Of a stretch of 64,000 nucleotides of DNA, positions 24,950 to 40,575 are shown piece after piece. The notes under the pieces are model-generated. The model was given only the letters and a program-made list of their open reading frames with translations, had not been told where the DNA came from and ran no database searches. This DNA comes from a virus. A program made the position numbers and the translations under genes. The stretch is from IMG/VR virus record IMGVR_UViG_3300005253_000262, positions 8,475 to 72,474 of that record; one strand, given 5' to 3'. Within the stretch, counting starts at the first letter, position 1. Each line of letters starts with the position of its first letter.

Positions 24950-25668
24950 TAGCTTAGATACACCAAGCCGTCTGTCGAGATTACTTCTTTCGTTCCCGGC
25001 AGAAGATCAAAAAGGTCTTGATGAGTGCGGGCGGCTGTGCCTTTGTAAACGAAAATCAATCTCTGCTGGCCGCCAAACCCGTTCATCGAGTTGCGCAGGT
25101 TTTCTATATCTGTGTCAGTCCAACTGTCGTCGATAATATTTTCTGAAATCACCACGCTCGGCCAATTACCACCAAGTGCCTGACGGATTGCCTGCCTCTG
25201 CGGTCCACTTGCCGCATCATTGTTTAAGACAATGACGTTCGATCTTGGTAAACCGTCAGAAGCAAAGGCTAAAATATCAGCACCACGACCAATATCAGGA
25301 TCAAGGCCAACGGCAGATATTTCTGCACGTATTTCCGCTTCCTCGGTATTGCCTTGTTCATCTGCGATATATTGAGAGATATCTATTCCGACTACATTGA
25401 CGGCGCCAGTTTCAACAATGATTGCATCTACGCCCCAACCAAACCCTGCGCCAACTACGCAAACCTCGTCGGTTGAACTGATATTAGGAGCTAGAATGGG
25501 GGCTAGAGTCGCCCACATCGATGCCAAGATAGGCTGCATGAGCAATTTGTGGTAACGAAGTCTTACAGGTGATCGACCCTCTGCGGGAGGCGGGCCACCA
25601 CCGGGCATACGTCGCTCTACCTGGAAGCGATAGTTAGCATCATAATCTGCCTTTGTCCATCCAGCCAC
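24949..25668 (-). CDS. class I SAM-dependent methyltransferase-like protein
   Basis: VCVVGAGFGW (motif I) and VVGIDIS (motif II). Confidence 0.5.
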   Translation of the reverse strand: MAGWTKADYDANYRFQVERRMPGGGPPPAEGRSPVRLRYHKLLMQPILASMWATLAPILAPNISSTDEVCVVGAGFGWGVDAIIVETGAVNVVGIDISQYIADEQGNTEEAEIRAEISAVGLDPDIGRGADILAFASDGLPRSNVIVLNNDAASGPQRQAIRQALGGNWPSVVISENIIDDSWTDTDIENLRNSMNGFGGQQRLIFVYKGTAARTHQDLFDLLPGTKEVISTDGLVYLS

Positions 25669-25687
25669 AGCACGCTCCTATCCATCA

Positions 25688-26167
25688 TTACACGTACAGG
25701 ACTTTATCGTCTGCCTCGGCATCGGTAAGTCTGGCAAACGTGCTAAACATTCTGCCACGATCGCCAGCCCACCGTTTTGCTTCCTTGGCTGCCTTCCTTA
25801 GCCATGCATATAGCAAGATGCCATCAGAGTAGTGCATCATGTAGTACGCGTCGTTGAAGGTGAGCTTAACGAGGGATCCCTCGAATCCAACATCCCACTT
25901 GTCGACATTGGTCATAAGCCCTGATCGACGGTACTCATGATGGATAGGATTCGTAAAGTTGGTGCGGTCATACGTGTTGAGTTGTTCAAAGAGTCCCGGA
26001 CGCACACCTTCGTTACGCATGGCAAACTTGATCGAGCCCATGAGTCCGACGCAGATCTTGAACGTGGTCTGATAGTACAGCCGAATTCGGTCCGATTCAA
26101 ACCGCACCTGTACCAAATCCATTCCTTGCTGCACATTCATCTGCGCCGGCTTGAGGATGACCGTCAT
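25688..26167 (-). CDS. hypothetical protein with internal duplication
   Basis: LVQVRFESDRIRLYY vs LVKLTFNDAYYMMHY. Confidence 0.55.
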   Translation of the reverse strand: MTVILKPAQMNVQQGMDLVQVRFESDRIRLYYQTTFKICVGLMGSIKFAMRNEGVRPGLFEQLNTYDRTNFTNPIHHEYRRSGLMTNVDKWDVGFEGSLVKLTFNDAYYMMHYSDGILLYAWLRKAAKEAKRWAGDRGRMFSTFARLTDAEADDKVLYV

Positions 26168-26170
26168 GGC

Positions 26171-26608
26171 TTAGTCCAGTGAGATTGCCAATGCTGAGAT
26201 CGCAAACTCTGGAGTTACACCGTTGTTGACGACGAGATCCGCATCCAGCGTGGAGAAGATCTGCATTACGCCCGCGAATCCGCCCAGTGATACGTCGGTT
26301 TCCGTCTCGGGACCAGTCGAGGAGAGGCCGAACGAGATAATCGCGTCATTAGTGGCTGAACCCGACGCAACAGTCCATCCCGACACACTACGTACGACGG
26401 TCTGGTTGGAATAGCCCGTATAGGCCGCTACGCCCTGCGTCTGTACCGTTGAGGTATCATCGATGACATTGCCGGTATGTAACGCAACAGTTAGGCTACC
26501 TGCTGTTGCGGACGGTAGGAGCCCACCGGCGTCGCCCATATTCGGTGCGGCTACGTTCGTGAACATCAGGTCGAGGACGTCGTCTTCCCATAAGTTAGTG
26601 GCACTCAT
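26171..26608 (-). CDS. small virion fibre-associated protein
   Basis: ALHT...AYTGY...V.R...W...N...I.F...P.FA..AL.IS.D pattern common in phage structural clusters. Confidence 0.65.
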   Translation of the reverse strand: MSATNLWEDDVLDLMFTNVAAPNMGDAGGLLPSATAGSLTVALHTGNVIDDTSTVQTQGVAAYTGYSNQTVVRSVSGWTVASGSATNDAIISFGLSSTGPETETDVSLGGFAGVMQIFSTLDADLVVNNGVTPEFAISALAISLD

Positions 26609-26934
26609 TACAGACCCCCAGCGGCGCCAAGGCCAGCACCAGTTATACCACGACGTGGTGGTGAGGACATTTCGACAACCTTCGCTGCGATTGCCTGGGC
26701 TTCCCGTGCACCTTCAAGCCCTTCACCGGTGATGATGGCAATCTCGAGGGCCTCATTAGCATCGCGCAGGACTTGCTTGTTGTCCTTGTAAATCTTGCTT
26801 ACGCGGGCACGTTCGACTTGAGTGGGTTGGTTGGCGTAGTATTCGGGGTAATTGTCGAGATCGTTCTCTTTTACCTCGAGTCTGGCAAGCTGCATCTTCT
26901 TCTTCGCAGCCTGTACGGCAGGTGATGGACTCAT
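26608..26934 (-). CDS. hypothetical protein
   Basis: GGAGAAC RBS; first gene after internal promoter. Confidence 0.6.
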   Translation of the reverse strand: MSPSPAVQAAKKKMQLARLEVKENDLDNYPEYYANQPTQVERARVSKIYKDNKQVLRDANEALEIAIITGEGLEGAREAQAIAAKVVEMSSPPRRGITGAGLGAAGGL

Positions 26935-26982
26935 GATGCGTTCTCCATGTGGGAGCGAGTTGAAGTAAACTTCATGTACTAT

Positions 26983-27011
26983 ATTATAACGACTATCTCG
27001 ATGAAAATCAA
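26983..27011 (-). promoter_or_regulatory. sigma70-type promoter for fibre cluster
   Basis: TTGATT-N17-TATAAT. Confidence 0.7.
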
Positions 27012-28490
27012 CTAGTCCTCTGTTTCTCCTTCTGAACCCTCAGAACGAGGCACTACGGATTCATCGTCCTCAGTCTCTATAACCTCACTCTCGGGCAGAT
27101 CTCCTTCAAGCCCTACCATCTCACGTGCCTCTTCGCGTGAGGTAATCTGCATCGGCTCTTTGTTGCCTGTCTGACGCGAGAGGTTACCGACTGCTCGGGC
27201 ATGTTGCGCTGAGGTCTGACCTTTCTCGAGAGGTGAGAGGATGAATGCACTTGGCCATTCCCACTTCACAACACCCTCCGGTAGGAGCTTAGCACTCTGT
27301 AGGAGCTCGGTCGTAGGTTTCAGTACGAGAGGCTGCGCGAAGAGTACACGACGTTCCGAGATCCTCTCTGCCCAGTTAGCTCTGTCTTGCTCCGACGCTA
27401 ACTGCCCTGCTTCCGACCCAAGGAGGATCCGCCGAGGAATCCCTGTGGTACCGGAGAGCAGTGCCATAAGCATCTCGAAGACTTCCTTCGGTGCGGGTGT
27501 CGTTGAATCGAGGACATCGAGTTTAACACCCCTTGTGCGGATGAATCGGCGTAGCTGATGCTGATATTCCTCGATTTCATCACTTAGGGCCGCAGCATCC
27601 GCGGGGTCGAGCTGCCTATCTGGCTCTACATCCGCTTGTATCCCGCGGTTCGCTGTGAGCCAGTAGGTCTCTGGCGTGCCCCCGGCAACCTTTAGGAGGT
27701 CATCGAGGAGGTTGTACACCTTCTCCATGATCGGGATACCAATCACCGTATCCTCCAGTGGGTTCTCTACGATATGCACTACTCGCGACGCATGTACAGT
27801 TAAATTGCGTAGACCCGTGACTTTTGTGGTGCCAGAGGATACAGTCCTAGTATTTGGGTCATCAAACTCGATCTTGTACATCTCCGGCTGCCCAAACTTA
27901 GGGCTACCGGGTTCAGCATTGAATTTGAGCTCCGTAACCTGTCTGCTTCCGATAGCACGCACATACAGGAGCTCCTTGACATCTCTACCCTGGCCAAGAG
28001 GCGTTTGGAGGTTCGTGCCGTCGTCAAAGCCGAAGAGCAGGATGGAGAAGTGGTTTAGGCGGGCTAGACGATCAGCACGATTCATCGTACCCCACAAGTT
28101 GTGTTTCTCGACCAACTCCTCCCACTTAGTCTTGATTGCATCGTTCTCCACGATCGCAGGAGGATTCGCCCATATAGCGTTGGGTGGAGCGTCAATAACC
28201 CGACTAGCGATATCCTGACGCACATATTTGGCAAGGAAGAGTTCAGCAGTGAGCTGCCTCTCATATCCAAAGACCTTCCACAGATCCCGCTTGCCCCCAA
28301 ACGACTTACCAGCGAGGTTGGCTAGTTGCATTCGGCTGATCAAGCCACTCAATACCCGTAATGAAAGTTCTTTGTCGGTATCTATCCCATTGCCCTGTTT
28401 CCGGATCCTCACTGAGCGCTCTGAGCTAGACACTAGAGACGCCTTAACGCCTCTGCCTGTATTAGTTATCGTGACACCTTTGTTCGTCAT
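27012..28490 (-). CDS. portal protein (DUF1073-like)
   Basis: After TerL; VHASRVVH, TGIPRRILLGSEAGQLAS..D..NW motifs. Confidence 0.88.
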   Translation of the reverse strand: MTNKGVTITNTGRGVKASLVSSSERSVRIRKQGNGIDTDKELSLRVLSGLISRMQLANLAGKSFGGKRDLWKVFGYERQLTAELFLAKYVRQDIASRVIDAPPNAIWANPPAIVENDAIKTKWEELVEKHNLWGTMNRADRLARLNHFSILLFGFDDGTNLQTPLGQGRDVKELLYVRAIGSRQVTELKFNAEPGSPKFGQPEMYKIEFDDPNTRTVSSGTTKVTGLRNLTVHASRVVHIVENPLEDTVIGIPIMEKVYNLLDDLLKVAGGTPETYWLTANRGIQADVEPDRQLDPADAAALSDEIEEYQHQLRRFIRTRGVKLDVLDSTTPAPKEVFEMLMALLSGTTGIPRRILLGSEAGQLASEQDRANWAERISERRVLFAQPLVLKPTTELLQSAKLLPEGVVKWEWPSAFILSPLEKGQTSAQHARAVGNLSRQTGNKEPMQITSREEAREMVGLEGDLPESEVIETEDDESVVPRSEGSEGETED

Positions 28491-28497
28491 ATTGCTT

Positions 28498-30045
28498 CTA
28501 CCAGGTTAGCCCAGCTCGAGGTGTGTCCTTCGACATAGAATGTCCAGGATTCCCCCGAATTGGGATTACGTTGCTTTCAGTCTCCCGACCCCATGTTAGC
28601 GACCCTTTGAGTCCGAAGACAAGTTTGTTGTACCCAAGTGCACATGCTATAATCTGGTCGTCGAATTCCGCATCCGCATCGAATCCATCCAATTCCTCCT
28701 CGAAGTCATCGTTCCAGTCAGCTTCGACCTCAAACACGTCGCCAGCCTCTATTGCTGCTAGGAATGGGCTTGCACGCACCTCCATTGGGCCTGTAGCTTT
28801 CTCGCCCTCGAAGTCGTATGCCTTTAGAAGGTCCTTGTAGTCCTCGATCACTGTCTTGCCAGAAGATCCGGGCTCCTGCTCCATCCATATCTGGACTCCA
28901 TGCCCATCGCCTGTAGCTGTACCATACACCAGCAGCTTAACCTTACCTGAGGACTTCTGGACATGTTTCATGTCGCGGAGATAAATCTTGCCAGTCTCTT
29001 TGTGCCTGGATATCTTGGGGCCCGCAGTGAAGTCCCCGCCGTCCTCTGTTGCTGCTAGATCCCATGCACGGATAGTCTTAAGATCGGCGTTACTGGGTAC
29101 CTCACTCTCGGGAATCTTCTTGAGGTACTCGGAAAGATCCAGTCCAGCCATGGATGCCCGCGGATTCTGCTGGAACATAGCATCCCACCAGTATGTACCC
29201 AGCGTTTTCTTGATCTGCAGCAACCTTTCACGTGAATAACGCTCTGGCCAGAGAGCTTCGCCCTCTGCACGCCCTAGAGGGTCATTAATCTCAGCCAATG
29301 CAGGGAAATTAATCAACCTCCAGTTCTCATGAGCAAGCTCTGTCATACACATCCCGATGAGATCCTTCTGATTCCACCGGGTTGCGATGATAATTAGACT
29401 AGCATCGGGCTCAAGGCGCGTATATGCGGTACTCTTGAACCACTCCCACGTTTTCTTGCGCTTCGTCACTGACAGGCTGTCTTCATCGTTCTTGATGTAG
29501 TCGTCGATGAGCATCAGGTCAGCACCACGGCCTACGAGTGGCCCACCAATGCCAGCCGCAGTAAGACCACCGCCTTGTGGAGTCAGCCACCTATCTACTC
29601 GTTTCTTGTCGGCGCGGATCCTGGTGTGCAGTAGATGGTGTAAGTCCTCGTTCTGGAACGTGTCACGGACCTTGAGTGAGAAGTCAGTTGCGAGCTCAGC
29701 ACCGTACGTGATGGTCATGACGAACTTACTAGGCCACTTCTCAAGGAACCAGATAGGTGTGTTGACGCTTAGGAACTCACTTTTTCCATGCCGAGCAGGA
29801 AATGTGAAGATGAGACGCGCGTTACCTTTAGCTACCTCAGTAGCAACGATCGTGCTGATGTAAAGGAGATGACGCGCAGCTATCCACCGCCCTTGAGTGA
29901 TCTTGACTGCCATTGTTGCGGGAGTGAGACGCCATCCCTCTTTTAGGGCAGTTTGGAGCTTCAGCTGATCACTATGGCTCAGTGCACTCAGATTAAGTGC
30001 CTCATGCTCATGTTCTGACGCGCTTCTGTCAATGTCCAACGTCAT
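28498..30045 (-). CDS. terL: terminase large subunit
   Basis: PARHGKS Walker A, GRGADLMLIDD Walker B, ATRW, FQQNP, RAWDLAA, FDDQ nuclease motifs. Confidence 0.95.
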   Translation of the reverse strand: MTLDIDRSASEHEHEALNLSALSHSDQLKLQTALKEGWRLTPATMAVKITQGRWIAARHLLYISTIVATEVAKGNARLIFTFPARHGKSEFLSVNTPIWFLEKWPSKFVMTITYGAELATDFSLKVRDTFQNEDLHHLLHTRIRADKKRVDRWLTPQGGGLTAAGIGGPLVGRGADLMLIDDYIKNDEDSLSVTKRKKTWEWFKSTAYTRLEPDASLIIIATRWNQKDLIGMCMTELAHENWRLINFPALAEINDPLGRAEGEALWPERYSRERLLQIKKTLGTYWWDAMFQQNPRASMAGLDLSEYLKKIPESEVPSNADLKTIRAWDLAATEDGGDFTAGPKISRHKETGKIYLRDMKHVQKSSGKVKLLVYGTATGDGHGVQIWMEQEPGSSGKTVIEDYKDLLKAYDFEGEKATGPMEVRASPFLAAIEAGDVFEVEADWNDDFEEELDGFDADAEFDDQIIACALGYNKLVFGLKGSLTWGRETESNVIPIRGNPGHSMSKDTPRAGLTW

Positions 30046-30362
30046 GCGTTAGTAACCTCACCATTCTTAATCCACCCATGCCAGCTACAGTCGTCTGGAT
30101 CTACCGGAACGTGTCGAATCGACGGACTCAGGGTCAGAGTCTCGAAATCAGTGCCAGTACGCTCCCAGGCTGGGTTCTCACTCTTCAGAGGCCCTTGACC
30201 GTCCTCAGGATTCGCAAATGGTACATATCGACGATCTCCACAGCCACAAGGACAATCATATCCAAGACCAACACGTTTACGTTCCGATACCGGTTTACCC
30301 CCATGGGTTATGCCCCCACCACCGTGTCTTACCCATTGAGGGTTCAGATCTATAAGCCTCAT
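30042..30362 (-). CDS. DUF6527-like zinc-binding protein
   Basis: CPCGCG...LTLSPSI...C.WHGWIKNG. Confidence 0.65.
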   Translation of the reverse strand: MRLIDLNPQWVRHGGGGITHGGKPVSERKRVGLGYDCPCGCGDRRYVPFANPEDGQGPLKSENPAWERTGTDFETLTLSPSIRHVPVDPDDCSWHGWIKNGEVTNA

Positions 30363-30389
30363 TTCTGGATCCTCAGGACGGCTTCCTTG

Positions 30390-31043
30390 TTAGGGTGAAT
30401 CTGCGGAGATACTGATATTCACTTCCTTGGACGCTTCTTCACCGGCTTGCGTTTCTTCGGTAGAGTCTTCGGCATCTTGTTTCGCTCCTTTAGCTAGATT
30501 GTCCGCAGCGGGGATTGCTCGGAGGTTTGTCATCGCCCAACATTCCCTAAATGCTACCCAGTCTACACGTCCCGATAGTGCGTTCCCCTCGAGGATGACC
30601 TGGAAGCTGCTGAGAGGCACTTTGTGATCGATGTGGTAGCCCTCGTTCAGTGCATCCCGCAGTGACCGCTTCGGACCCTCACGATCCTTGAGATCCTTGC
30701 GGAGGTACTTGACGAGGTGGCGAATCTTGTAGCCGAGGTACTTTTCGAGGTTCTTTACGAATTCGTCAGGAGCAGCTTCACCTAACTGCGTAAGACACCG
30801 TGTACCTGTGTGATGGCGGACTCTGTACGCGACATTCTTCTTACGCGCAGACGTATTGGCTTGGCCTTTGCATTGGTAGCAGATAACCTGATACCCATCA
30901 GCGTTATCGTCATGCGGGCCAAATGCTTTCTTCCATTCGCGGCCGTTCTCGTCTGTGTGAGCCTCTTTTGCCTTCCACTGGCGGCATTTGATGCACTTCT
31001 TGTATATCGCCCTGTCGTAGTTTATAACTATGGGTCCAGCCAT
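30390..31043 (-). CDS. HNH endonuclease
   Basis: CxxC..CxxC zinc ribbon; HIDHKVP...CW..TNL....DN..KG. Confidence 0.8.
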   Translation of the reverse strand: MAGPIVINYDRAIYKKCIKCRQWKAKEAHTDENGREWKKAFGPHDDNADGYQVICYQCKGQANTSARKKNVAYRVRHHTGTRCLTQLGEAAPDEFVKNLEKYLGYKIRHLVKYLRKDLKDREGPKRSLRDALNEGYHIDHKVPLSSFQVILEGNALSGRVDWVAFRECWAMTNLRAIPAADNLAKGAKQDAEDSTEETQAGEEASKEVNISISADSP

Positions 31044-31047
31044 GTTA

Positions 31048-32100
31048 TCACCTCTTCCTGATAATCAGTCTTTGCAGAATCTCAACAGCCACCGGATCCT
31101 CAAGGGCCCTATCAAGGAGTTCGCCTTCTTCATCGACGACGGTGCCTTCGGACGAGGCTCGGTTGGACTGTGCAATAGTGCGGAAGGTGAGTTCCAGTGA
31201 TTCTCCACTTCGATCCTCGCTACCAGCAGCCGCAGGACCAGCAGCTGGGAGCCCTGCTGAGATACGCTCCAGCGAGGTTGTCTGCTTCAGAAGGTCGATT
31301 GCCACTTTCGGCGTCATCAACTCCCAGAACTCCTCGTCACCGTTTATGTACTGCATTATCTTGTGACGTATACGCTTGGCATCGATGTAATGTTCATCCT
31401 GCGTCTCGATTGCGCGGATTTCCTGACGACGCCTATGTTGTGCAACACGAAATAGATCATATGCACGTGCCCGTAGTCCCCAGTAGTATACATGGTAGGC
31501 ACGTTTATAGTGTTCGATGATGGAGAGTAACTCAATATCGTTCGCAGCTGGGTGAAGCATAGCCACGAGAGAGGAGATACTACGTGTACCGGCAGCAGCC
31601 TTGCCAGGGTCTCCCTCGTCTTCTGGATCCTCAGGATCCCCCGAGACGCCAGCACGTCCGCACGCCATCTGAAGGTACGTCTCAAATGCACGGAAGATAT
31701 CACTGGGTTCACTGTCCAGCTGATACCAGAAAGCTTGGCCATTCTCGAATGCGGGGAACCCCTCATCATACTGCAGTGGTACGAACGCATTAGGGAGACT
31801 CGCAGCGAGGAAGCCCGCAACTCGGTATTCCACAGGAAGCGAAGGGTCGCCCCGAGCCTCATCCTCGGGGGAGAGAGATGACGGAGATTCACTTGGCTCG
31901 GGGGACCCCACTTCGCTTGGGCGTGGTAGTGCGTGTCCGTTGGTGTGTGTAGGCTTGTAATTGTGGAAAGGCAACAGGTCGACGCGGTAGATACCGGTGG
32001 GGAGACCGAAATCGTTCAACGGCAGCTCTCCGGCTAGCGCTTTGATCGCCTGAACCTGGAGGACCTCCGCCTCCGCACCTACATTTACTTCGATGTCCAT
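31048..32100 (-). CDS. putative terminase small subunit
   Basis: First late gene upstream of TerL; E....FRAF..Y...W..RA.AYD motif; ATG 6 nt after TATAAT. Confidence 0.6.
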   Translation of the reverse strand: MDIEVNVGAEAEVLQVQAIKALAGELPLNDFGLPTGIYRVDLLPFHNYKPTHTNGHALPRPSEVGSPEPSESPSSLSPEDEARGDPSLPVEYRVAGFLAASLPNAFVPLQYDEGFPAFENGQAFWYQLDSEPSDIFRAFETYLQMACGRAGVSGDPEDPEDEGDPGKAAAGTRSISSLVAMLHPAANDIELLSIIEHYKRAYHVYYWGLRARAYDLFRVAQHRRRQEIRAIETQDEHYIDAKRIRHKIMQYINGDEEFWELMTPKVAIDLLKQTTSLERISAGLPAAGPAAAGSEDRSGESLELTFRTIAQSNRASSEGTVVDEEGELLDRALEDPVAVEILQRLIIRKR

Positions 32101-32106
32101 ACATCT

Positions 32107-32136
32107 ATTATATAACACTATTTGTCGGCATGTCAA
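32107..32136 (-). promoter_or_regulatory. consensus sigma70 promoter, probably leaderless transcript
   Basis: TTGACA-N18-TATAAT-N6-ATG, no SD. Confidence 0.75.
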
Positions 32137-32159
32137 GTATTAGGCAACTACACCCTGTG

Positions 32160-32244
32160 CCTCAAGGTTCTAGGCTACGGATAAAAATATTTTTAAGGAC
32201 ATACCTGGGCCTCAAGGTTCTAGTCCGGAATAAAGAATATTTTT
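32160..32244 (+). repeat. imperfect direct repeat pair CCTCAAGGTTCTAG...ATATTTTT
   Basis: Copies start at 32160 and 32210. Confidence 0.7.
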
Positions 32245-32312
32245 GAGTTCCTGATGTCACATAACTACATGATTTCATTACGTAAACTAAAATTATGAGT
32301 GAGTGTGAAACG

Positions 32313-32371
32313 TTGACATTCATTTCATAATGAACGATGATTATGAATGTTAAGTAATAGTACTTAACATT
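32313..32371 (+). promoter_or_regulatory. promoter with overlapping inverted repeats (operator-like)
   Basis: TTGACA at 32313; TTGACATTCAT/ATGAATGTTAA and perfect AATGTTAAGTA/TACTTAACATT (32346-32371). Confidence 0.55.
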
Positions 32372-32387
32372 TAATGAGGTTTAGACT

Positions 32388-32585
32388 ATGTCTCAAACTA
32401 AAAAACTTACCAAGTCTCAGAAGTTCAACGTAGACTCATTCTCAACGAAGTCAGCAAAGATTCGTTACCTAACTAATCTTGATTGGACTCGATCTGAGAT
32501 TTCGAAATATCTGAACATTCTTTACCAACACGTTCGGAATGTTCAGATCACACCAGTGAAGAATCCGACTGAACAAAAGAAGTAA
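32388..32585 (+). CDS. small HTH-like DNA-binding protein (paralog 1)
   Basis: KSAKIRYL...RSEISKYLNILYQHVRNV; GAGG RBS; own terminator. Confidence 0.8.
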   Translation: MSQTKKLTKSQKFNVDSFSTKSAKIRYLTNLDWTRSEISKYLNILYQHVRNVQITPVKNPTEQKK

Positions 32586-32594
32586 AGTAAGACT

Positions 32595-32628
32595 GAGACT
32601 CACTCTAAGTTAGAGTGAGTCTCTTTTT
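32595..32628 (+). terminator. intrinsic terminator
   Basis: GAGACTCACTCTA/TAGAGTGAGTCTC + TTTTT. Confidence 0.9.
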
Positions 32629-32740
32629 GTGTTTATGATTCGAGTAGTCCTAGGGGCGGACCGGTCGACTACTACAACCCTCCCAAGTGTCAAATTTGAA
32701 ACCTACTAGTCTCTCCACATAGGACATGTCGAGTGTGAGT

Positions 32741-32764
32741 GTGGAGGTGGAGGTGGAGGTGGAG
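32741..32764 (+). repeat. (GTGGAG)x4
   Basis: Direct reading, within a strongly G/T-skewed non-coding tract. Confidence 0.85.
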
Positions 32765-33392
32765 TGAGATGTGACATGTAGGGTGGAGTGAGGTGATGAC
32801 TAGTTAGGTGATGTGAAGTTAACTAGGCCTATGGTCGACCCGTCTACTGCTACTAACACCCCAAGTGTCAAATTCAACCGCCCGGACTAGTAGGTCCACA
32901 CGTAACTATCGACCACCCGCGCTAGCGGTAGACCCCCTCCCGGCCCTGTCTACTAGTACGCCTGAGGAAAAGTTTTGGACATTTAGGCACTGGGCACCGT
33001 CAAAAACGTACAGGTCCATGAACATCGAACGTGGATCGAGACTTAGCATAGCAGTCCTCAAATAGGAAACTAATTAAACTAATTGATACCAGTTCCAGGT
33101 CTTCTCGTTACAAATCAACGAGTTAAGTAGTTTATTAAATTAATTAGTTTTTGCTTATTCTACATATACTACTGTTTAATATGTATATATTATTCCTACT
33201 ACTTATACGGTCATTATTCCTTTATATACATTTCTATCTTGACTCTTCTAAACAAAAGAAATCGTAATTAAGTTAATAAGGCCAACTAATCGTCGTGTCC
33301 GGTCGCCGTCCTGAGGGGTCTGATCAAGAAACATGTCTCTACGGCGGGTCCTACGAGTTGACTCAAAACCCATCGATTAAATGCATAGGCGT

Positions 33393-33446
33393 AATTAATA
33401 TAAAATGACTCTTGATACTAATCCCTCTGGTTCTATATAATATATA
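33393..33446 (+). promoter_or_regulatory. early promoter, copy 1
   Basis: AT-rich UP element, TTGATA-N18-TATAAT; 26 bp identical to 33862-33887. Confidence 0.85.
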
Positions 33447-33794
33447 CTATGAAAGAATATCTTTAACCAGCCAACAGGAGAACGATCATCAACAGGTTAC
33501 ATAATCGCACAGCAGACATGCAAGCCTCGTCAATACGGGTAACACCGGAAGCACGGGCAGCTTTGGATAGGCTACCAGCATACGTAATGGTAAGCCGTTT
33601 CCTTCAACACTTCGACCTCATCCCATGCGACCTTGGAAACGTCGCAATCATGGTCTCCGAGTCTACGCGTCCTCAGAATAGGATGCACACTCGCTCGATC
33701 CGCATTATCAACCTAGTCAACGCGTACATCGAACAGCTCGAAGTTGTCGAAGCGTACGACATCGCTAACCTATAGCTAGGTACACAGTCGAATG

Positions 33795-33826
33795 AAAGCC
33801 CATTCTTCGGATCGGGCTTTTATTTT
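33795..33826 (+). terminator. intrinsic terminator
   Basis: AAAGCCC...GGGCTTT + TATTTT. Confidence 0.8.
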
Positions 33827-33861
33827 GCGTGTCGTCGGGTCCCTATGGAGGGCCCTGTCAC

Positions 33862-33915
33862 AATTAATATAAAATGACTCTTGATACCGGCCCCCTAGGT
33901 TCTATATAATATATA
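33862..33915 (+). promoter_or_regulatory. early promoter, copy 2
   Basis: TTGATA-N18-TATAAT, duplicate of 33393 element. Confidence 0.85.
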
Positions 33916-36900
33916 TTATGAACAAATATTATATATATATACCAAGCGGTACAACTAGGAGAACTGTAATGAGCAGTAATGATAAATGTTGGAAACGTCG
34001 ACCGCACGATTGGAACGAACATGATGAGACCAGGACACATCTGATCAAGAAGTGTTCGGTCTGTAAAGGTCTGCGATGGGTCGCACGTCGAACCATCGTG
34101 GTCACGTTAACAGCTCGACAAAGCAACTAGGAGAACAGATATGAAGTTTGACGATGAAACAGGTACGCTAACGATCAACGAGTTTGAACTACACGACATG
34201 GTCGCAGACATGAACGTGAACATTAACCCAGGCCGAAAGGACGCCGAAGCGACCGGATCGCTACTTGAACGTATCAAGATCATTCCTAAGGAACCAAACG
34301 ACTTTACGCCCGGCTTGGTAAACAAGTACGAGGTCCTATTGAACAATCTGATCCTTATGACCATGATGATCGATAGTGACATTCATGACGACGCGGAATA
34401 TACCTGTAGCTAACTAGCGGGTCAACTAGGAGAATATGATGAATGAACCAACAGTCTACCTGCAGGGACCTGACGGGGAAGAGTTTACATTGAAAGTTAC
34501 ATCGCCGGATCCTGACGATGGAACATTCTGTGCGCATCTTCCAAAGAGCGAGGTCGCACTGGCCGAGGAATGGTGGATCAGGATCGTACCAAACGAGAGC
34601 GGGCGCTAGCGCGGGCCCATCGGTAGAATAGGAGAACAGATATGACAACGCAACGTACATTTTATTGCCCATGCTGTGGTCAACCAGCAGACGCTATCCA
34701 GGTAGACGTACAACATGGCGACGTAGGAGATGAAGACGTGACATGGAAACGTGTTCATCTGGAATGTTTAGGTAAATGTCCAGTTCTTTGGTCATGTGTC
34801 GACATTCCTAACGAATGTTTGAACGACAAGACCCCAACAATTCCACTAGATGTAAGAGTCGACACGGTAGATAACCGGGATAGTCGTACAACATGGCTCT
34901 GGGTCAACGGCGACAAGGACTACGTTGAGATCGATCCCGTCGACCTGATCGAGAACATGATCGAAAACTGTGTCCACGTCATAACGGACACGGGGCTTTG
35001 TCATACCGAGAACCAGGTGACCGCAGACGAGTTACAGACCGCTTTATCAATCCTACAGCGCGTCTAGTCGCTGTGGGCGACCCGAGGAGGAGTCAACATG
35101 GCATATTATAATGTAGTCGTAACGATCGTGGCCGACGATGAAGAAGAGGCTGAAGGAGTAGTCGAACGAGGCATCGATAAACAAGGCTATGCGGTCTTGG
35201 ATATAGTGGCAAGTCGTATTAAGGACGATGACTTGATTAAAGAACTGGACGCCCAGGATGTAGCGTTCTAACCGGGAGGAACAACTATGAAATACGTACA
35301 TATAGACAGTAATGGGTCAATGAAGATTCGTGACCACCAACTACCAGACTGGAAATACGGATGGGTCTATAAGGTACCAGACGACTTCCAGTTCGAACTA
35401 GGCTCGGCCAATGCAGAGAACCGTTTGTACTTTTGCGAACTACTCGAGAATGATCCTCGGGCGGAGCTAATATTCGACGGCGAGGTAGAAAGAACAACCA
35501 CGAACTACAGTGATATAAAAGGACCCAACACGTTGGCCGAGTTCTTAATGAAGGACTTGAGTACCGAAACGTTGTTCAAGATCTACCAGGACAAGAACAA
35601 AAACGACTTGGGCGAGTTGGACGCTATGACTAATGACCCAGCGGAGCTGTTAAGAGAACACATCAGCTACCTGTTCTATACGGCCAGTTACAATCTGGTC
35701 ATGAACATCCACTACAAATTAGGGCTCTTGGACGAGGAGACTGTTGAACAGATCATCAACGAGTAGGAGGAACAACCATGAATAAGACTATCACAGAGAT
35801 ATACAACGAGTTAAGTACTGACGAGGAGGTCGGAGACAGGGTGAATAATCTCGTAAGTGAGATCGTTACTCGAATCGTCAGCGTTCCTGAGATTCGTCAA
35901 GCGGTCCTGTTGGCGGCCCTGAGAGTCGACGCGTATATCAAAGAGGACAATCCAGACACAATAGGCGACGTCCCGTTCTATATGGTCTGGAACCATATCA
36001 TGTCCGAGAAGGACACATTGGATTAGGAGGAGGAACGAACATGAGTAACGATCAACCATACTTCAATCTAGTGATCTGTACCATCGATGGCACTGTTGAA
36101 ATTACAATCGAACCGATCGCCTTACATGACGAGGACGGAGGAGACTCGTACATGATAAGAGTGACCAATGAGGAACAGACAATCGTTCAAGAAATGGTCG
36201 TCAATGCGGACAAGATTAATTTCGGTTAACCGGGAGGAGTAGTAATGGATTTTGATAAGTACTATGACGAAGACGCGACAGATTGCGATGTTATACGTGA
36301 AGTGTACAAAGGTCTTCGACCTGAAGTCAAGGATCGTGCCCATAGGGATATTCGACATGCACTCTATCGAGAGGTCATGTCGAAACGGGCACAAATGGCC
36401 CAGCTACTAGGCTGGTACGGACAGACAATGTAAGAGGAACAATCATGACAATTAGAAGATGCATAGTCCTTGACTGGACTACAGATGAACAGATTGAAGC
36501 GATAGGTAGACTCTTAGACAAGGAATGTAAAAAGATCTATCCACTCTTCAGTGCCGACCAAGACAAAGGGTTCGACAATCCCGAACATGTACCTGACAAG
36601 GAGTTAGAACTCTTAGGTAATGGTCTTACGAATTTATGTTGTGACCTGGGAGTCGACGGATACGAGATGTCATAAGAACATGGACAACAGAATTACAACT
36701 GGGCGCTACAACTATGCACATGAACGGTGCTAAAGGCGGCCCCGGAATGCTACAAACCGCGCAAGTGTCAAAAATGAAACACTACAACCCTACCAAGTGT
36801 CAAAAAAGGAGAACGATCATGAACGAAGAGGAATTTGCAAAGTATCTACATGGTCTTATCGAGCAGTACATCGAGGACCTTTGTCTACTTGATGGAGAGA

Positions 36901-37404
36901 CGGTCGTACTCTGCGTAAGGGGCGAAGAGACTATGCTAGATGGTCTCGATAGTGGGTGGTACTCTGCTCCTAAGTAGTGAGCGTGCAAACATGAACATTC
37001 CAGACAACTTAATGGAACGTATGGTACAGATGTACCGAATGTCTGTTTGGGACCACTGTGGACGTATGTACATGCCTATCTATGATTACGATGGACAGAT
37101 CTGTGCATACGCTCGGGCCGAAGAGGCGCTAGAGATCTGGTGTGATGATCTGGCGCTTCGGACGGCCCTAGAACACTAAGGATCGCGCAAGTGTCAAAAT
37201 TCATAAACGAACGAGTGCCCTTCAGAATATTTCATATGGAGTGTTGTGGTCACATGCTCTGTTGGGTCAACCCAAGATTCCCTACACACTGTCCAGAATG
37301 TGGTCAAACAGTATACCCCACGATCAAGTCCTGGGTAACATTATCCGATCCTAATGCTCACCTACGATTCAAAAACGGACCCTAAAGTGACTACGAAATG
37401 ACAC

Positions 37405-37434
37405 TTGCTATGACACTAGATGGTTCGCTATAAT
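37405..37434 (+). promoter_or_regulatory. sigma70-type promoter
   Basis: TTGCTA-N18-TATAAT with shared AAATGAC.CTTG upstream. Confidence 0.7.
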
Positions 37435-38008
37435 ATATCATACTGAATAGATATCTACAAGAGGACAAAGCATGAGACTATCGGATAAGGAAATCTTCGC
37501 ACTAGGCAACTGCTATACAGCATTTGGATATGGCGACATAGATGGAGCAGTGCATTGTATTCTGCCTAGTGTCGATTCTGACACCGACGTATGGTCAAAT
37601 GGCGTATTTCAATTGCTCGCGGACAGATTTCTCAATCTATCTGACGACCTAAGCGTGGATAATTCAGATATACAAGACATTGCCGAAACGTACAGATTAG
37701 TAATCGAGCAGTGGCTTAAGGAGATGGACATTGATCTTGGACTAAACGAATTGGAGTACTAAACGAAGAGGACAAAGCATGAAAACGATCAGCAAAGCAC
37801 TAATGACGATGACACGCCAGACGAAAGGCGCTGTCGTATACGACAATGTCAAACCGAACAACGGTGGTCAAGCAATTACCACCTTGTACCTTCGAAAGGA
37901 TGGGCTCACAGAGCCGTATCCTGGCAGTATCGAAGTCACAGTCGCTGTGGACGACCCCGACGAGGGCTAGAAGCAGCATAATCCATGGGCCTATAAGGAG
38001 GCACAATC

Positions 38009-38278
38009 ATGGGCAAGCAAGCAACAGCGCAGAAGCAAGACCCTGCGGCAACGCAGAGCACGAAAGAGTCAACCGACAAGACTGTCGAGTTGTCAAAGGC
38101 ACAGCAAGCGGCAGTCGCGAAGCTGGATACGGTCAGCGCCAGGATCCGATATCTGGACGCGGAAGGCTACAGCCGTTCGGACATCACGAAAGCGATCCCG
38201 AACGCCAAGGGCAACAAGCTCTTGTATCAGCACGTCCGTAACGTGTTGATAACCCCAGTCGGCAAAGCGTCAAGCTGA
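38009..38278 (+). CDS. small HTH-like DNA-binding protein (paralog 2)
   Basis: SARIRYL...SRSDI...LYQHVRNVLITPV; AAGGAGG RBS. Confidence 0.8.
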   Translation: MGKQATAQKQDPAATQSTKESTDKTVELSKAQQAAVAKLDTVSARIRYLDAEGYSRSDITKAIPNAKGNKLLYQHVRNVLITPVGKASS

Positions 38279-38288
38279 GCCAACGGTT

Positions 38289-38332
38289 GGAACCCATTCG
38301 GACTCGGGTGAGGCGGGTGGGTTCCTTCTTTT
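38289..38332 (+). terminator. intrinsic terminator
   Basis: GGAACCCATTCG/CGGGTGGGTTCC + TTCTTTT. Confidence 0.7.
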
Positions 38333-38352
38333 AACCAGTAACGGAGAAGAAC

Positions 38353-38601
38353 ATGCAAATCAAACGTACCTTTGCGGTCGTACCATTATCAAAGGCGAGT
38401 GGGCACGGCGTGGTCCGCGACGTCGAGCTATTTGGTACAGAGGAGCGTGCCATAGCACATGCCAGACGCTCTCTGGGCCTTGACACAACGCGCACTGGAT
38501 TTGTCGTCTACCAAGCGACAACACTCGTTCAGTGGGCGACACAGCCAATCGACGTGTGCACGATTGGCGACGACGGGGAGATACTACCATGCGGCGACTG
38601 A
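38353..38601 (+). CDS. hypothetical protein, tandem paralog A
   Basis: TEE.A...AR, V.Y.A..LV, DGE..P shared with next gene. Confidence 0.7.
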   Translation: MQIKRTFAVVPLSKASGHGVVRDVELFGTEERAIAHARRSLGLDTTRTGFVVYQATTLVQWATQPIDVCTIGDDGEILPCGD

Positions 38602-38837
38602 GACTGATGTACAAGATCCACGGCCTTAATACGGCTCGGGGCATGGCCCGTAGCGCGGGCAACGACACCTTCTACGAAACAGAAGAGCAGGCGCTAACGG
38701 CGGCCCGGAGCTATGTATCACTACCGAGTTGCCATGATGCAATGGTCATCTACAAAGCACATGTACTTGTGCGGCGTTCCCACCCACCAGTCGAGGTCCT
38801 TTCGATCTCACACGACGGAGAGACTATCCCGTTGTGA
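38589..38837 (+). CDS. hypothetical protein, tandem paralog B
   Basis: GGGGAG RBS; same motifs as paralog A. Confidence 0.7.
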   Translation: MRRLRLMYKIHGLNTARGMARSAGNDTFYETEEQALTAARSYVSLPSCHDAMVIYKAHVLVRRSHPPVEVLSISHDGETIPL

Positions 38838-40370
38838 GATGACACAACATAGTCCATTAGGATCCTCACGGAATGCACTGCGTCTAAACAGGATCACAGA
38901 GTGGTGGACTATTTTATGTCAACCAAGTGGAGGAGAACATGAACGCAAAACACACGTACAGAGTCACGCACAGGAATGATCTACGGGGGATCAACGTGAG
39001 GGAGCTGATCATGCTACACCCCTCACCTGTAGAGACCAACGAAGAGCGGATCGCAAGACAAGCACGTAAGGAACCGCATCCGAAGGTTATTGCTGCTCAG
39101 GAGAGGTTCGAGGAACTTCTCCAGAAGCGGACGAGAAGGAGTCACAAGAAATGACGTACAAACTTCATAAACTGAATCAGAACGGTACGAACGCTCAAGG
39201 GGTCCCACTAGGGCTCGTCAACTGGATGTGTCTCAACCGTCTGCACACGATGCCTAAGAGGGACAAGTTGCGCGATAAGCACTTTACTGTACCCACAGAG
39301 GCACCTAAGGTACTGAGTATACCACAACGTCGACTTCGTGAACGCGAACCTGCGATGTTCTATAAGATGTACCACTACTACATGCTGTGGGCAGACCTAG
39401 CACTAGCTAAACGCGGAGAGTTCAAGAACGAGGGCCTTATCACGTTCAATACGCGCGAGTGGAGGAGACACCAATGAACTACCACATCTGGCATAAGGGT
39501 ATAGTCATAGAGTCATTCTCAGCGGACAATGACGACAAAGCTCGTGCATACGCTCGACAACGCTATACCCATTTCGCCAAATGCACCGACGACGATGACA
39601 AAGTCATATATACAAAGACACCAATGACTGAGGATCGACAATGGTTGTTGGACCACTGCATTGAATGTGATGGTGCAGAGATACCGCAAGCATGGTGGGA
39701 AGACGCCGAGGCTCACAAGAGCCTGGGCCATGTGACCATCTCCGGGCCGCGAGGGCCAAATGGCTCCTTCAAGCGCATAACTCCGACATGAACGTTAGCG
39801 GCGATGACATTGTACTAATCGTAGGGGTCCTATACTGGGGCTACTTTCAATTGGCCCCGCTCTGGAGGAAACGGCAATGAACAGAATCTCGAACAAACTA
39901 GCAGGGCGACTGCTAGATACGGATCTAGCGAACTCTTCCTGGCGAGAGACCTACCCAAAGGCGTATGAAGACTTGTTAGAGTATCGTCAGGACATCGAAC
40001 AATCATTTCGACAGATCCTGAGTGACCACTTTGACAGGGTACGAAAGGAACTGCTTGAATAACCTGGAGGAAGCGGTAATGGAGAAACGTGAAGTAAGAC
40101 AGCTTCGCATAGGTGATCGCGTATCACTCAAATACAGCCTAGGCATAGGTAAGATCACTCGGATCGTGTGGTCCTATCGCGAATATCGTTACGGTAACCT
40201 ACCTAAGGATGGTATGTACCCGATGATTGAGTTTCGGGACATAATGACTAAGGGGAAACGTTGGGCGACATACCTTGCTATTGCGGAGTGGACGCACGTG
40301 AAGCACTGGTAAGCGATCAAGCGCAGGCCCGTAGTACATAACGATAAAGGCCCACATAATGCGTCAGCTT

Positions 40371-40407
40371 AGGTCAAGAGAATCCTCCCTCTCTTGGCCT
40401 TCTTTTT
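40371..40407 (+). terminator. intrinsic terminator
   Basis: AGGTCAAGAG/CTCTTGGCCT + TCTTTTT. Confidence 0.8.
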
Positions 40408-40511
40408 GCCGTTCAGAACCTCAGGCCTCGTTATGAAGCTGCTAGTCACAATGGCCAGCCCCCCAATGCTACAGATCGCGCACAGGTCAAAAATTTACCC
40501 CAAAATGCATC

Positions 40512-40541: not shown

Positions 40542-40575
40542 AGAGATAATAGAAAAGTGATGAGAGGAGACTGTT

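Follow-up and report, generated by a model that had tools for sequence, protein, structure and literature searches.

Depletion of GpC in the divergent early region of an uncultured phage carrying deazaguanine synthesis genes, and its possible relation to the phage's own DNA modification motif

Introduction

Why should a phage lose a single dinucleotide, GpC, almost completely from a few hundred base pairs when the same dinucleotide occurs at normal frequency in the rest of its genome? The question is raised by a 616-bp stretch in the 72,474-bp IMG/VR virus record IMGVR_UViG_3300005253_000262. The window analysed is a stretch of 64,000 nucleotides (positions 8,475 to 72,474 of that record), and its numbering is used below unless the genome is named. 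The original prediction, made by inspection of the letters, had described the stretch as a promoter-gene-terminator unit at the probable genome start that has been purged of a GpC-containing motif, either because the DNA has to stay unmodified and readable by host RNA polymerase, or because it has to escape a GpC-directed host defence until the encoded protein acts.

GpC depletion at positions 32211-32826

32211..32826, no strand: GpC desert proper, 2 GpC in 616 bp

Recounting reproduced the two GpC dinucleotides that had been noticed by eye, at 32454 (AGCA) and 32656 (GGCG), as well as the reported abundance of CpG (17 occurrences). GGCC sites border the desert at both edges (32208-32211 and 32826-32829). 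The stretch contains 138 G and 102 C (G+C 39 %), from which 22.9 GpC would be expected (observed/expected ratio, o/e, 0.09); local composition within ±50 bp predicts 22.2. Block shuffling gave expectations of 18.6, 20.4 and 22.8 for 25-bp blocks, 50-bp blocks and the whole region, respectively, and for every block size none of 20,000 shuffles had two or fewer GpC (Poisson P(≤2|18.6) = 1.6e-6). The claim that low G+C is insufficient as an explanation thus survives correction for composition, and the purge of GpC is confirmed as genuine. Each part of the proposed unit was separately depleted: the upstream non-coding DNA (32211-32387) has 0 GpC vs 3.5-4.0 expected (P 0.008-0.016), the gene (32388-32585) 1 vs 6.7-6.9 (P 0.0025), and the downstream non-coding DNA (32586-32826) 1 vs 8.4-11.6 (P ≤5e-5). 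When the amino acid sequence of the gene product was held constant, 5.6 GpC were expected in the gene (P 0.004).

To control for the look-elsewhere effect the whole 72,474-bp genome was scanned for all 10 dinucleotide classes. The desert had the highest scan LLR (14.9) of any class genome-wide, in agreement with the sliding-window check that had been proposed. Its three adjoining GC-free gaps (245, 202 and 171 bp) rank 1, 2 and 4 in the genome, and no dinucleotide other than GpC ever falls below 10 per 616-bp window. By itself an LLR of 14.9 is not extraordinary, because in other phages top deserts of other classes with LLR 13-24 sit in ordinary genes. Over the window the o/e of GpC is 1.00, and for the DNA beyond the early region it is 1.02; the word is depleted in the island and has normal frequency in the remaining genome. 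GA (1.34) and TC (1.38) are enriched in the island.

Elements in and around the island

The following elements were recognized, the promoters and the terminator as pattern matches:

32107..32136, minus strand: perfect sigma-70 consensus, TTGACA-18-TATAAT, directed leftward
32154..32247, no strand: two repeats 50 bp apart, CCTG(T/G)GCCTCAAGGTTCTAG followed by an A/T palindrome, between the divergent promoters
32313..32341, plus strand: sigma-70-like promoter of the first early unit, TTGACA, 17-nt spacer, GATGAT, 10/12 matches
32388..32585, plus strand: gene for a 65-aa protein (P0001), family core TKSxxIRxL...RSEIAKxL.IRYQHVRNVLITP conserved
32595..32623, plus strand: terminator-like hairpin, 13-14 pairs including 6 G-C pairs, then TTTTTG
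32586..33517, no strand: 932-bp stretch without a credible gene, GpC 22 vs ~40 expected
38009..38278, plus strand: paralogue of the 65-aa protein, 89 aa, Ala-rich, outside the depleted zone

The purge thus spans a plausible promoter-gene-terminator unit, as had been proposed; judged by sequence patterns, the unit at 32313-32623 has a sigma-70 promoter and an intrinsic terminator, the stem of which (32595-32623) contains no GpC. The desert starts within the second copy of the CCTG(T/G)GCCTCAAGGTTCTAG repeat, and the ATG of the first leftward gene (32100) lies 6 nt past the -10 hexamer of the leftward promoter. Behind the terminator, the gene-free stretch 32586-33517 carries a 38-nt direct repeat (32659-32696 and 32837-32874), a (GTGGAG)x4 tract without C (32741-32764) and inverted 11-mers at 32701 and 32885. 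An Rfam search of 31900-33700 returned one sub-threshold chance match, and megablast of 31000-35000 against isolated phages gave zero matches; by portal protein, the nearest isolated phages have just 38 % identity. The word CCTGGGCC, common to the relative G011, was considered as a general site and dropped because it occurs upstream of the gene in only 4/64 loci.

Some observations concern the population from which the record was assembled. Contig depth halves rightward of ~32.8-33.4 kb, an observation not used as evidence, and the source metagenomes, from marine sediment, show high variability in the early region adjoining the island. Within the island, 16 differences are listed for a variant strain in run X3, and none of them creates a GpC; as this would happen by chance with P = 0.10, it was not counted as evidence.

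The amino acid composition noted for the 65-aa protein (one Ala, no Gly) and the Ala-richness of its paralogue (13 Ala, 4 Gly) were both upheld on recounting. GpC o/e is 1.01 in the 1-kb bin of the paralogue, and since this member of the family is rich in Ala, the family does not need GpC-poor coding sequence. The predicted model of the 65-aa protein consists of four helices (pLDDT 87). Its best Foldseek rows are helix-turn-helix (HTH) domains (IstA, GerE, Spo0J, sigma region 4), all with E ≥ 0.5 and none with E ≤ 0.001, and searches of Pfam, NCBIfam and PHROGs matched no curated HTH family. From the model, the product looks like a small HTH-like DNA binder; the suggestion that it acts against a host defence received no support.

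Avoidance in the early genes acts on double-stranded DNA

32388..37385, plus strand: early gene cluster, 15 small ORFs, with patchy, weaker GpC avoidance

Over the ~5 kb of the early cluster GpC o/e is 0.65. The low-GpC lines that had been pointed out at 34.8-36.7 kb fall in bins (34-37 kb) with GpC o/e 0.62-0.65 and CpG 1.02-1.27, and three ORFs of the cluster (33518-33775, 34141-34413 and 34436-34609) have normal GpC. The cluster avoids NGC codons as well as G|C at codon boundaries, and its proteins contain little Ala. At the third codon positions of its 15 genes the ratio C/(C+T) is 0.32 after G vs 0.62/0.48/0.67 after A/C/T (C vs T: 35/76 after G vs 318/203 otherwise, Fisher P 1.6e-8), whereas in the remaining genome it is 0.49 after G vs 0.52/0.46/0.60 after A/C/T. 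Codon-boundary G|C has an o/e of 0.58 in the early genes vs 1.02 elsewhere, and synonymous sites of late genes show no GpC depletion. On the sense strand, reverse-complementary trinucleotides are depleted to similar extents (o/e: GCA 0.43/TGC 0.49, GCT 0.56/AGC 0.46, GCC 0.68/GGC 0.77, GCG 0.93/CGC 0.84). Because the depletion extends to synonymous sites and affects both strands alike, these observations show that the avoidance acts on double-stranded DNA, not on protein or RNA, as the prediction of a purge at the nucleic acid level had implied. Strand symmetry rules out RNA-level causes such as endoribonuclease avoidance or CpG/ZAP-like sensing. Ten early proteins compared with PHROGs gave no match.

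Deazaguanine and packaging genes

28498..30045, minus strand: terminase large subunit (TerL)
30390..31043, minus strand: Endonuclease VII / HNH-type gene, between the TerS-like gene and TerL
31048..32100, minus strand: first leftward gene, 350 aa, TerS-like; weak match to terminase small subunit, adjoins TerL in relatives
59900..60589, plus strand: QueC, 180 bits, above cut-off; PHROGs 1e-59
60920..61531, plus strand: QueD-like, PHROGs 4e-38
61971..63683, plus strand: QueE-like radical SAM enzyme interrupted by an intein (Hint + LAGLIDADG), PHROGs 1e-29
63646..63993, plus strand: GTP cyclohydrolase (FolE), N-terminal half; the C-terminal half is at genome 44-331
genome 745-1518, outside the window: DpdA-like gene, 257 aa, structural look-alikes in the Atlas

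The phage had been said to encode preQ0 synthesis, and FolE, QueD, QueE and QueC are indeed all present, together with the DpdA-like protein. The Atlas look-alikes of the latter (TM 0.76-0.83) include a cluster in which 17 % of the members carry PF23859 DpdA and a 'transglycosylase' cluster. The 257-aa protein had no match in Pfam, NCBIfam or PHROGs and no BLASTP similarity to CAjan DpdA (E 3.8); a PF01702 profile search of the genome gave no match, and PDB sequence searches with two DpdA candidates returned nothing relevant. On structural likeness it is a lead, a candidate guanine transglycosylase. Among the long relatives tested, QueC was present in 10/10 and the DpdA-like protein in 20/20. 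A PF00145 search of the genome found no C5-methyltransferase.

The proposal that the island is the physical start of the genome was not confirmed. The two halves of FolE lie at opposite ends of the record, so the record ends cut the gene and the record is a permuted assembly. The homologous gene is 0.3-3.6 kb from a contig end in 8 long relatives, and far from the record ends in the 6 relatives flagged as terminally repeated; the 127 bp repeated at the ends of G011 are an overlap left by the assembly, and one contig ending at 32834 continues into adapter-like letters and was not read as a terminus. Contig ends and the G011 repeat thus give no usable evidence on this point.

Recurrence in relatives

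Homologues of the 65-aa gene were found in 72 IMG/VR loci, 63 of them non-redundant. A GpC desert with LLR of at least 6 lay near the gene in 31/63 loci vs 8/293 control segments situated more than 2 kb from it, and with LLR of at least 10 in 10/63 vs 1/293. With class-specific nulls, 20 of the 63 loci exceeded the null 99th percentile for GC; for other classes the numbers were 8 (GG/CC), 5 (AG/CT), 5 (CA/TG) and 0 (CG). These matched nulls replaced a simpler statistic, the best desert at most 500 bp from the gene, which was non-specific, other classes being nearly as high (GC 33/63 vs CG 24, AA/TT 31 and CA/TG 32); the region of the gene in relatives also draws deserts of other dinucleotides. 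Locus L053 has 6 GpC vs 40.4 across 825 bp, a stretch that runs from the promoter and the gene through a terminator to a second gene with a terminator of its own. Elsewhere in the relatives' loci, non-coding DNA has a GpC o/e of 0.96.

As the original prediction requires, the depletion recurs around the homologous genes of related QueC phages, though it is not universal. Of 20 long relatives 15 were above the null 95th percentile by LLR and 5 below; L034 and L040 are GpC-rich at the gene (o/e 1.48), and the TerL-neighbour loci L003 and L005 have no GpC desert. On a tree of the DpdA-like protein, loci labelled by o/e<0.6 did not cluster (6 changes over 8 rows, 207/500 shuffles as low), a result to which we attach little weight, this label being noisy: L051, for example, scores 0.88 despite a 400-bp stretch with 0 GpC vs 11 expected.

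The sequence context was derived from 15 pooled deserts (13,075 bp). The o/e of NGCN words was 0.25-0.54 throughout, with the exception of GGCC (0.92), which makes up 36 of the 267 residual GpC vs an expected share of 5.9 % (P 3e-6). Words with a CG core and without GC were normal or enriched (TCGA 1.98).

Phages with mapped modification motifs

If a deazaguanine phage clears its start-up region of the word that its own enzyme modifies, phages with mapped motifs should lack that word in the corresponding place. The DpdA of phage iggy is described in the available part of its report as strictly GA-specific (PMC10484667). The strongest desert of any class in iggy is one of GA/TC (LLR 47.1, 60 vs 169.4, 59892..688); it coincides with the phage's own divergent early region, and its core at 59900-60628 has 17 vs 89.3. 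In CAjan, in which GA plus GGC are modified (PMC7544227), the top GA/TC desert lies at the divergent region (97 vs 159.2), as does the second-best GA/TC desert of 9g (104 vs 155.8); in both phages, ordinary genes also contain GA/TC deserts whose LLR is similar. None of the three has a GpC desert (best LLR 3.9-5.9), and T1 and lambda, two genomes without DpdA that served as the sole negative controls, have no such desert at their early regions. Of the two alternatives originally offered, the one in which the unit is kept unmodified thus receives indirect support from the GA/TC desert of iggy, and weaker support from those of CAjan and 9g. The second CAjan motif, GGC, has a ratio of 1.11 in the early region vs 0.80 genome-wide, and its lack of depletion there counts against a strict form of the own-motif reading.

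Discussion

The 616-bp stretch may be the start-up island of a deazaguanine-modifying phage, consisting of the divergent promoter region, the first early unit with its HTH-like protein and the repeat-rich DNA behind the terminator. The explanation we favour, at somewhat less than an even chance, is that the motif at which the phage itself inserts deazaguanine has been eliminated from this start-up region; in this phage the motif would include GpC (perhaps as HGC). Selection on double-stranded DNA would strip GpC from the island and, to a lesser extent, from the following 5 kb of early genes, GpC being part of the target of the DpdA-like guanine-exchanging enzyme; judged by the contexts that are spared, the motif may be 5'-HGC-3', that is any GpC save GGCC. 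The incoming virion DNA would be fully modified, and with a motif-free island the major groove of the first promoters, the operators and the first-read template would be unaltered, so that host RNA polymerase and the early regulator could act immediately. Packaging or replication sites nearby may be kept unaltered too. That the DpdA-like protein modifies DNA, and that the island needs to be unmodified, we infer. A CAjan-like variant, in which unprotected GpC is purged and GA and GGCC are kept, was ranked lower because iggy purges the very word that it protects.

The depletion could instead reflect avoidance of host defence, if GpC sites were the target of restriction or of another system and were purged from DNA exposed before counter-measures are in place, GGCC being protected otherwise. 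There is a documented paradigm for such avoidance: in the published text available, EcoRI cleavage of T5 DNA is confined to sites in the pre-early region (bioRxiv 10.1101/866236), and the sensitivity of Autographiviridae is decided by type I motifs in the leading region (PMC12455610). A depletion that is region-specific, operates on double-stranded DNA at synonymous sites, is labile among relatives as host-driven traits are, and adjoins an early region of high variability would fit this explanation. It does not account for the CG-core palindromes TCGA, ACGT and CCGG, which are not avoided, and the purge of a protected word by iggy is the opposite of what it predicts. Moreover, we know of no defence that reads a bare dinucleotide, and staged DNA entry is, to our knowledge, not known for such phages. 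We consider this explanation unlikely, though still a serious rival of the preferred reading.

Still less likely, in our estimation, is a requirement of packaging, replication or terminal repeats, with a cos/pac site or an origin from which the motif is excluded because it has to be recognized whether or not the DNA is modified, and with the early gene depleted by its location. The island adjoins the TerS-like gene, the HNH gene and TerL and is rich in direct and inverted repeats; in addition, terminal repeats of 1,091 bp are reported for iggy (PMC10484667), and the ends of the iggy record fall within its GA desert. However, the GA-poor regions of CAjan and 9g are at divergent promoters, ~6.6 kb and 4.7 kb upstream of terS, respectively, and in the phage studied here the avoidance extends through 5 kb of early coding sequence.

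Neutral decay, which we regard as improbable, would require that the modified base, or cytosine methylation at GpC followed by deamination, is mutagenic, and that the motif is lost fastest where constraint is weakest, namely in non-coding DNA and in fast-evolving early ORFans. The products of GpC deamination, GT (1.31) and AC (1.32), are overrepresented in the island, iggy (0.79) and CAjan (0.87) have low GA/TC ratios over their whole genomes, and GpC-specific C5-methyltransferases of phages, accompanied by TET-like hydroxylases, have been described (PMC8256090, in the part available). Yet GA/TC is raised in the island as much as GT/AC, the genome-wide GpC ratio is 1.00-1.02, the other non-coding DNA of the lineage (0.96) and the synonymous sites of late genes are undepleted, and the search for a C5-methyltransferase was negative. 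A composition accident picked by eye, produced by an A+T-rich regulatory stretch, a small protein rich in Lys, Ser and Thr with one Ala and no Gly, and G-only repeats such as the (GTGGAG)x4 tract, could invoke the 39 % G+C, the deserts of other dinucleotides at the relatives' region and the LLR 13-24 deserts in ordinary genes of other phages, but is very improbable given the 18.6 GpC still expected from 25-bp block shuffles, the 5.6 expected for the amino acid sequence, the recurrence in unalignable relatives (20/63 loci for GC, 0/63 for CG) and the GGCC exception.

The preferred reading, a purge of the phage's own modification motif, may apply beyond this lineage. That deazaguanine phages in general keep a start-up island free of the target word of their own enzyme, a word that can be read out from the missing dinucleotide, is a tentative proposal to which we give slightly less credence than to its local form. 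If it is true, the missing word reveals the specificity of the enzyme, because phages purge their own target word from the island: GA in iggy, CAjan and 9g, and GpC (HGC, sparing GGCC) in the marine lineage, and a GG-type desert, as in some relatives including L064, would mark a switch of specificity. The target motifs of uncharacterised DpdA enzymes would become predictable by sequence alone for thousands of uncultured phages, and for the present lineage, a widespread one of marine or sediment habitats, the prediction would be a new DpdA specificity, G followed by C and not preceded by G. A further consequence would be that a deazaguanine in the major groove is a burden during the earliest steps of infection. 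Such a trade-off, in which hypermodification protects the genome but the DNA that starts the infection must stay readable, has not been described before. Phages otherwise resistant to restriction would then have a defined unprotected stretch, which bears on arms races and on phage choice and engineering. The proposal can be tested with public resources, since native and amplified nanopore runs exist for iggy and CAjan, and CAjan queC or dpdA mutants have been described.

Comparison with known systems

That DNA entering or expressed first can be cleared of harmful motifs is already published for T5 and T7-like phages; a link of such islands to the phage's own deazaguanine motif was not found in print, nor is a motif-free region mentioned in the text searched of the papers on iggy and CAjan. 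Among viral DNA-modifying enzymes, the GpC methyltransferases of phages and M.CviPI show that GpC can serve as the entire recognition word, as far as the available text shows (PMC8256090); they modify C, not G, and none was found in this genome. A DNA virus in which the gene expressed first is singled out for dinucleotide suppression is human cytomegalovirus: its immediate-early 1 gene is CpG-suppressed in evasion of ZAP, according to the portion of the source available (PMC7498042). There the suppression acts on RNA and against a host sensor, whereas the depletion in the island acts on DNA, because it is strand-symmetric and covers DNA that does not appear to be transcribed.

The first-step-transfer DNA of T5 and the leading region of T7-like phages, to the extent covered by the texts available, share with the island that a short region needed first has been freed of a word common elsewhere in the genome. 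Those phages, whose DNA is known to enter in stages, avoid a host restriction site with 5-7 specific bases; here a dinucleotide is avoided, and its probable link is to modification by the phage itself.

The closest likeness is to iggy and CAjan, the dPreQ0 phages of Queuovirinae type. They share with this phage FolE, QueD, QueE and QueC plus a guanine transglycosylase (here a candidate), a similar replication module (polymerase, helicase, Cas4-type exonuclease, Sak4, ligase, primase) and a bidirectional genome with a divergent early region; according to the scans, one G-containing dinucleotide is scarce in that region. The DpdA of CAjan differs in having no detectable sequence similarity to the DpdA-like protein described here. 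In iggy and CAjan the depleted word, GA/TC, is the mapped motif, whereas in the present phage GA is enriched and the depleted word is GpC, which would be part of the motif of its own enzyme.

GpC desert at the divergent promoters

By manual count, the 616-bp island at 32211-32826 had been said to hold only two GpC but well over a dozen CpG. Recounting gave 2 GpC (32454 and 32656) against 22.9 expected, and 17 CpG. Base composition did not account for the deficit: when the composition of 25-bp blocks was kept, 18.6 GpC were expected (Poisson P 1.6e-6) and 0 of 20,000 shuffles reached 2; a chance fluctuation is an unlikely explanation. Three neighbouring GC-free gaps of the island are the first, second and fourth longest genome-wide, and every other dinucleotide occurs at least 10 times in all 616-bp windows of the genome. 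Across the ten strand-symmetric dinucleotide classes, the island was the highest-scoring desert of the genome (scan score, LLR, 14.9), and GpC was separately depleted in its upstream non-coding DNA, in the gene and in its downstream non-coding DNA. Top deserts of other phage genomes reach LLR 13-24; these are GG/CC, TA or AC/GT deserts and mostly intragenic. For GpC, iggy, CAjan, 9g and T1 reach no more than LLR 3.9-5.9.

Features in and around the island
32136-32107, minus strand: predicted leftward promoter with perfect sigma-70 consensus, TTGACA-18-TATAAT; 6 nt separate its -10 hexamer from the ATG (32100) of the TerS-like gene
From 32313, plus strand: predicted rightward promoter, TTGACA-17-GATGAT, a sequence match
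After the 65-aa gene: predicted terminator hairpin of 13-14 pairs, its stem with six G-C pairs and zero GpC
32586-33517: gene-free stretch of 932 bp; it contains two direct copies of a 38-nt repeat, at a distance of 178 bp, and (GTGGAG)x4 between the copies

As proposed in the original prediction, the predicted promoter, the gene for the 65-aa protein and the terminator hairpin all lie within the island. Its left edge falls within the second of two 50-bp-spaced repeats, between the divergent promoters, and its right part is the first 200 bp of the gene-free stretch. In the gene-free stretch, an arm of an 11-nt inverted repeat follows each copy of the 38-nt repeat; the array may be an origin or serve packaging or regulation. 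The 6-nt spacing of the predicted leftward promoter suggests that the TerS-like gene, which heads the packaging and structural block, has a leaderless mRNA. The 65-aa protein was modeled as four helices (pLDDT 87), the closest structural neighbours being helix-turn-helix domains, all non-significant. An Rfam search of the island and the gene-free stretch gave no match to an RNA family.

Genome record and gene layout

The window comprises bases 8475-72474 of an IMG/VR virus record of 72,474 bp. GTP cyclohydrolase is split by the record ends (profile positions 8-102 at window 63646-63993, and 113-198 at genome 44-331). Since both ends halve this gene, the record represents a circular map, assembled in permuted form, and does not start or stop at physical termini. 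Near-identical sequence was found in public marine sediment metagenome runs. In the two runs from the likely source sample, contig depth drops from ~22 to ~11 on passing rightwards across 32.83-33.36 kb, and loose contig ends at 32701 and 32417 run on into differing sequence. Several strains seem to have the late block and the first unit in common and to differ in their early genes.

Gene blocks and selected genes
From 32100, minus strand: leftward block; 350-aa protein (weak terminase-small-subunit match), endonuclease VII / HNH, terminase large subunit (TerL), portal, structural genes
From 32388, plus strand: rightward block; ~15 small unknown ORFs, then replication genes, then QueC, QueD, intein-bearing QueE and FolE
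30390-31043 (between the TerS-like gene and TerL) and 52852-53250: two endonuclease VII / HNH-type genes
40977-41633: DJ-1/PfpI-like protein, 218 aa, among early-middle genes (TIGR01382 6e-13, below cut-off)
61971-63683: QueE-like radical SAM gene, 570 aa; Hint / intein splicing domains and a LAGLIDADG homing endonuclease precede the radical SAM core
Genome 745-1518, just outside the window: DpdA-like candidate, 257 aa, with look-alikes in DpdA-family clusters and one 'transglycosylase' cluster

An HNH gene between TerS and TerL is a layout known from those cos phages whose terminase needs an HNH partner. The 257-aa protein received no family name from any profile search, and its assignment as DpdA, the guanine transglycosylase, is only a lead.

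Avoidance of GpC in the early region

Between 32.1 and 37 kb the observed/expected ratio (o/e) is 0.65 for GpC and 1.13 for CpG. Ala content is 5.1 % in 15 early genes vs 9.4 % elsewhere. GpC avoidance is also synonymous (Fisher P 1.6e-8): at third positions of these 15 genes, C/(C+T) is 0.32 following G, compared with 0.62 following A, 0.48 following C and 0.67 following T; in the remaining genome the four values, in this order, are 0.49, 0.52, 0.46 and 0.60. At codon boundaries G|C stands at 0.58 in early genes vs 1.02 elsewhere. On the sense strand, trinucleotides are depleted to the same extent as their reverse complements, a pattern that points to double-stranded DNA, not mRNA. The depletion is patchy, three early ORFs having normal GpC, and the Ala-rich paralogue at 38009 sits beyond the depleted zone. 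Codon choice, strand symmetry and patchiness show that the early-region deficit is neither a composition nor a protein effect.

The context of the missing GpC was counted in 15 pooled deserts (13 kb) against local expectation. NGCN words were at 0.25-0.54 of expectation with the sole exception of GGCC (0.92), which made up 36 of the 267 residual GpC (expected share 5.9 %, P 3e-6). Nine deserts keep at least one GGCC, all nine at or over the prediction from uniform depletion, and the window's early region is alike (16 GGCC, 12.4 expected). CG-core words lacking GpC were normal or enriched (TCGA 1.98, ACGT 1.47, CCGG 1.05); G and C are apparently retained as CpG or beside A/T. The simplest word common to all avoided contexts and missing from GGCC would be HGC (GCD on the opposite strand).

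Recurrence in relatives

An IMG/VR profile search with the small protein gave 72 loci, 63 of them non-redundant; 293 segments of the same loci, >2 kb from the gene, served as controls. TerL adjoins the gene in 9 of 10 long relatives tested, as in this genome; QueC was present in 10/10 and a DpdA-like protein in 20/20. The depletion expected in relatives was found: a near-gene GpC desert with LLR of at least 6 occurred in 31/63 loci vs 8/293 controls, and with LLR of at least 10 in 10/63 vs 1/293. GC exceeded the 99th percentile of its class-specific null in 20/63 loci; the same test gave 8 for GG/CC, 5 each for AG/CT and CA/TG, 3 for GA/TC, 2 each for AC/GT and AA/TT, and 0/63 for CG, AT and TA. 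GpC o/e in other non-coding DNA of these loci was 0.96.

In the clearest case, locus L053, 6 GpC vs 40.4 expected were counted across 825 bp covering promoter, gene, terminator, second gene and second terminator, with an abrupt switch to GpC-rich DNA beyond. The desert varies among relatives and is not universal: near-gene GpC o/e has a median of 0.90, with several loci being rich in GpC, and L003 and L005, the nearest TerL relatives, have no GpC desert at the gene. Locus L064 (gene around 10001-10132) has a GG/CC desert (LLR 14.4) without a GpC desert; its DpdA-like protein is the sister of that of L053, and the avoided word may have switched. On the DpdA-like tree the desert trait was not clustered (first label, noisy).

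The 'direct terminal repeat' flagged in the relative G011 gives no usable evidence of a genome end; it is exactly 127 bp, the size of a word overlap of an assembler. It is located in the divergent region, beside the homologous gene.

Phages with mapped DpdA motifs

Nanopore mapping gave GA and GGC as the DpdA motifs of CAjan (PMC7544227), and GA alone as that of iggy, in which 97 % of the GA sites carry the modification (PMC10484667). The top desert of all classes in iggy is GA/TC (LLR 47.1, 60 vs 169.4 expected; MN029011 59892-60628 and 1-688). It crosses the record ends, which are the divergence point of the leftward and rightward gene blocks; in its core (59900-60628) GA/TC is at 17 vs 89.3, and GG, GC and GGC are plentiful. 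The divergent early region of iggy is crowded with ACCAGG(G)CAAA-like repeats. The divergent region of CAjan, between gp70 and gp71, holds its top GA/TC desert (97 vs 159.2), and two further GA/TC deserts of similar strength are intragenic; against the rule that a phage purges its own motif, the second motif, GGC, is not depleted at the divergent region. The second-best GA/TC desert of 9g is at the divergent region, where the record has annotated predicted promoters. A desert of this kind is absent from the early regions of T1 and lambda, the two control genomes, which lack the system.

The most economical account, which we favour tentatively and short of calling it probable, is that the start-up region may be kept without the phage's own guanine-exchange motif, which in this lineage would contain GpC. 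Our favoured reason for an unmodified island is that 7-substituted deazaguanines lie in the major groove, and that the incoming, fully modified genome would have to be readable immediately for host polymerase and the early HTH-like protein. In a close variant, nearby packaging or replication sites would need the unmodified island. Avoidance of a host defence has good precedent as a cause of such a purge, in T5 and T7-like phages, but it leaves unexplained why iggy has purged precisely its protected word. Neutral decay of the region is unlikely.

A literature search brought up no report linking deazaguanine to an unmodified region, to avoidance of a motif or to early promoters, and the text of the iggy and CAjan papers (PMC10484667, PMC7544227), as far as searched, does not mention a motif-free region. 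The two kinds of phage are reciprocal: in the GA-motif phages the start-up region is GA-poor and GpC-rich, whereas in this phage it is GpC-free and GA-rich.
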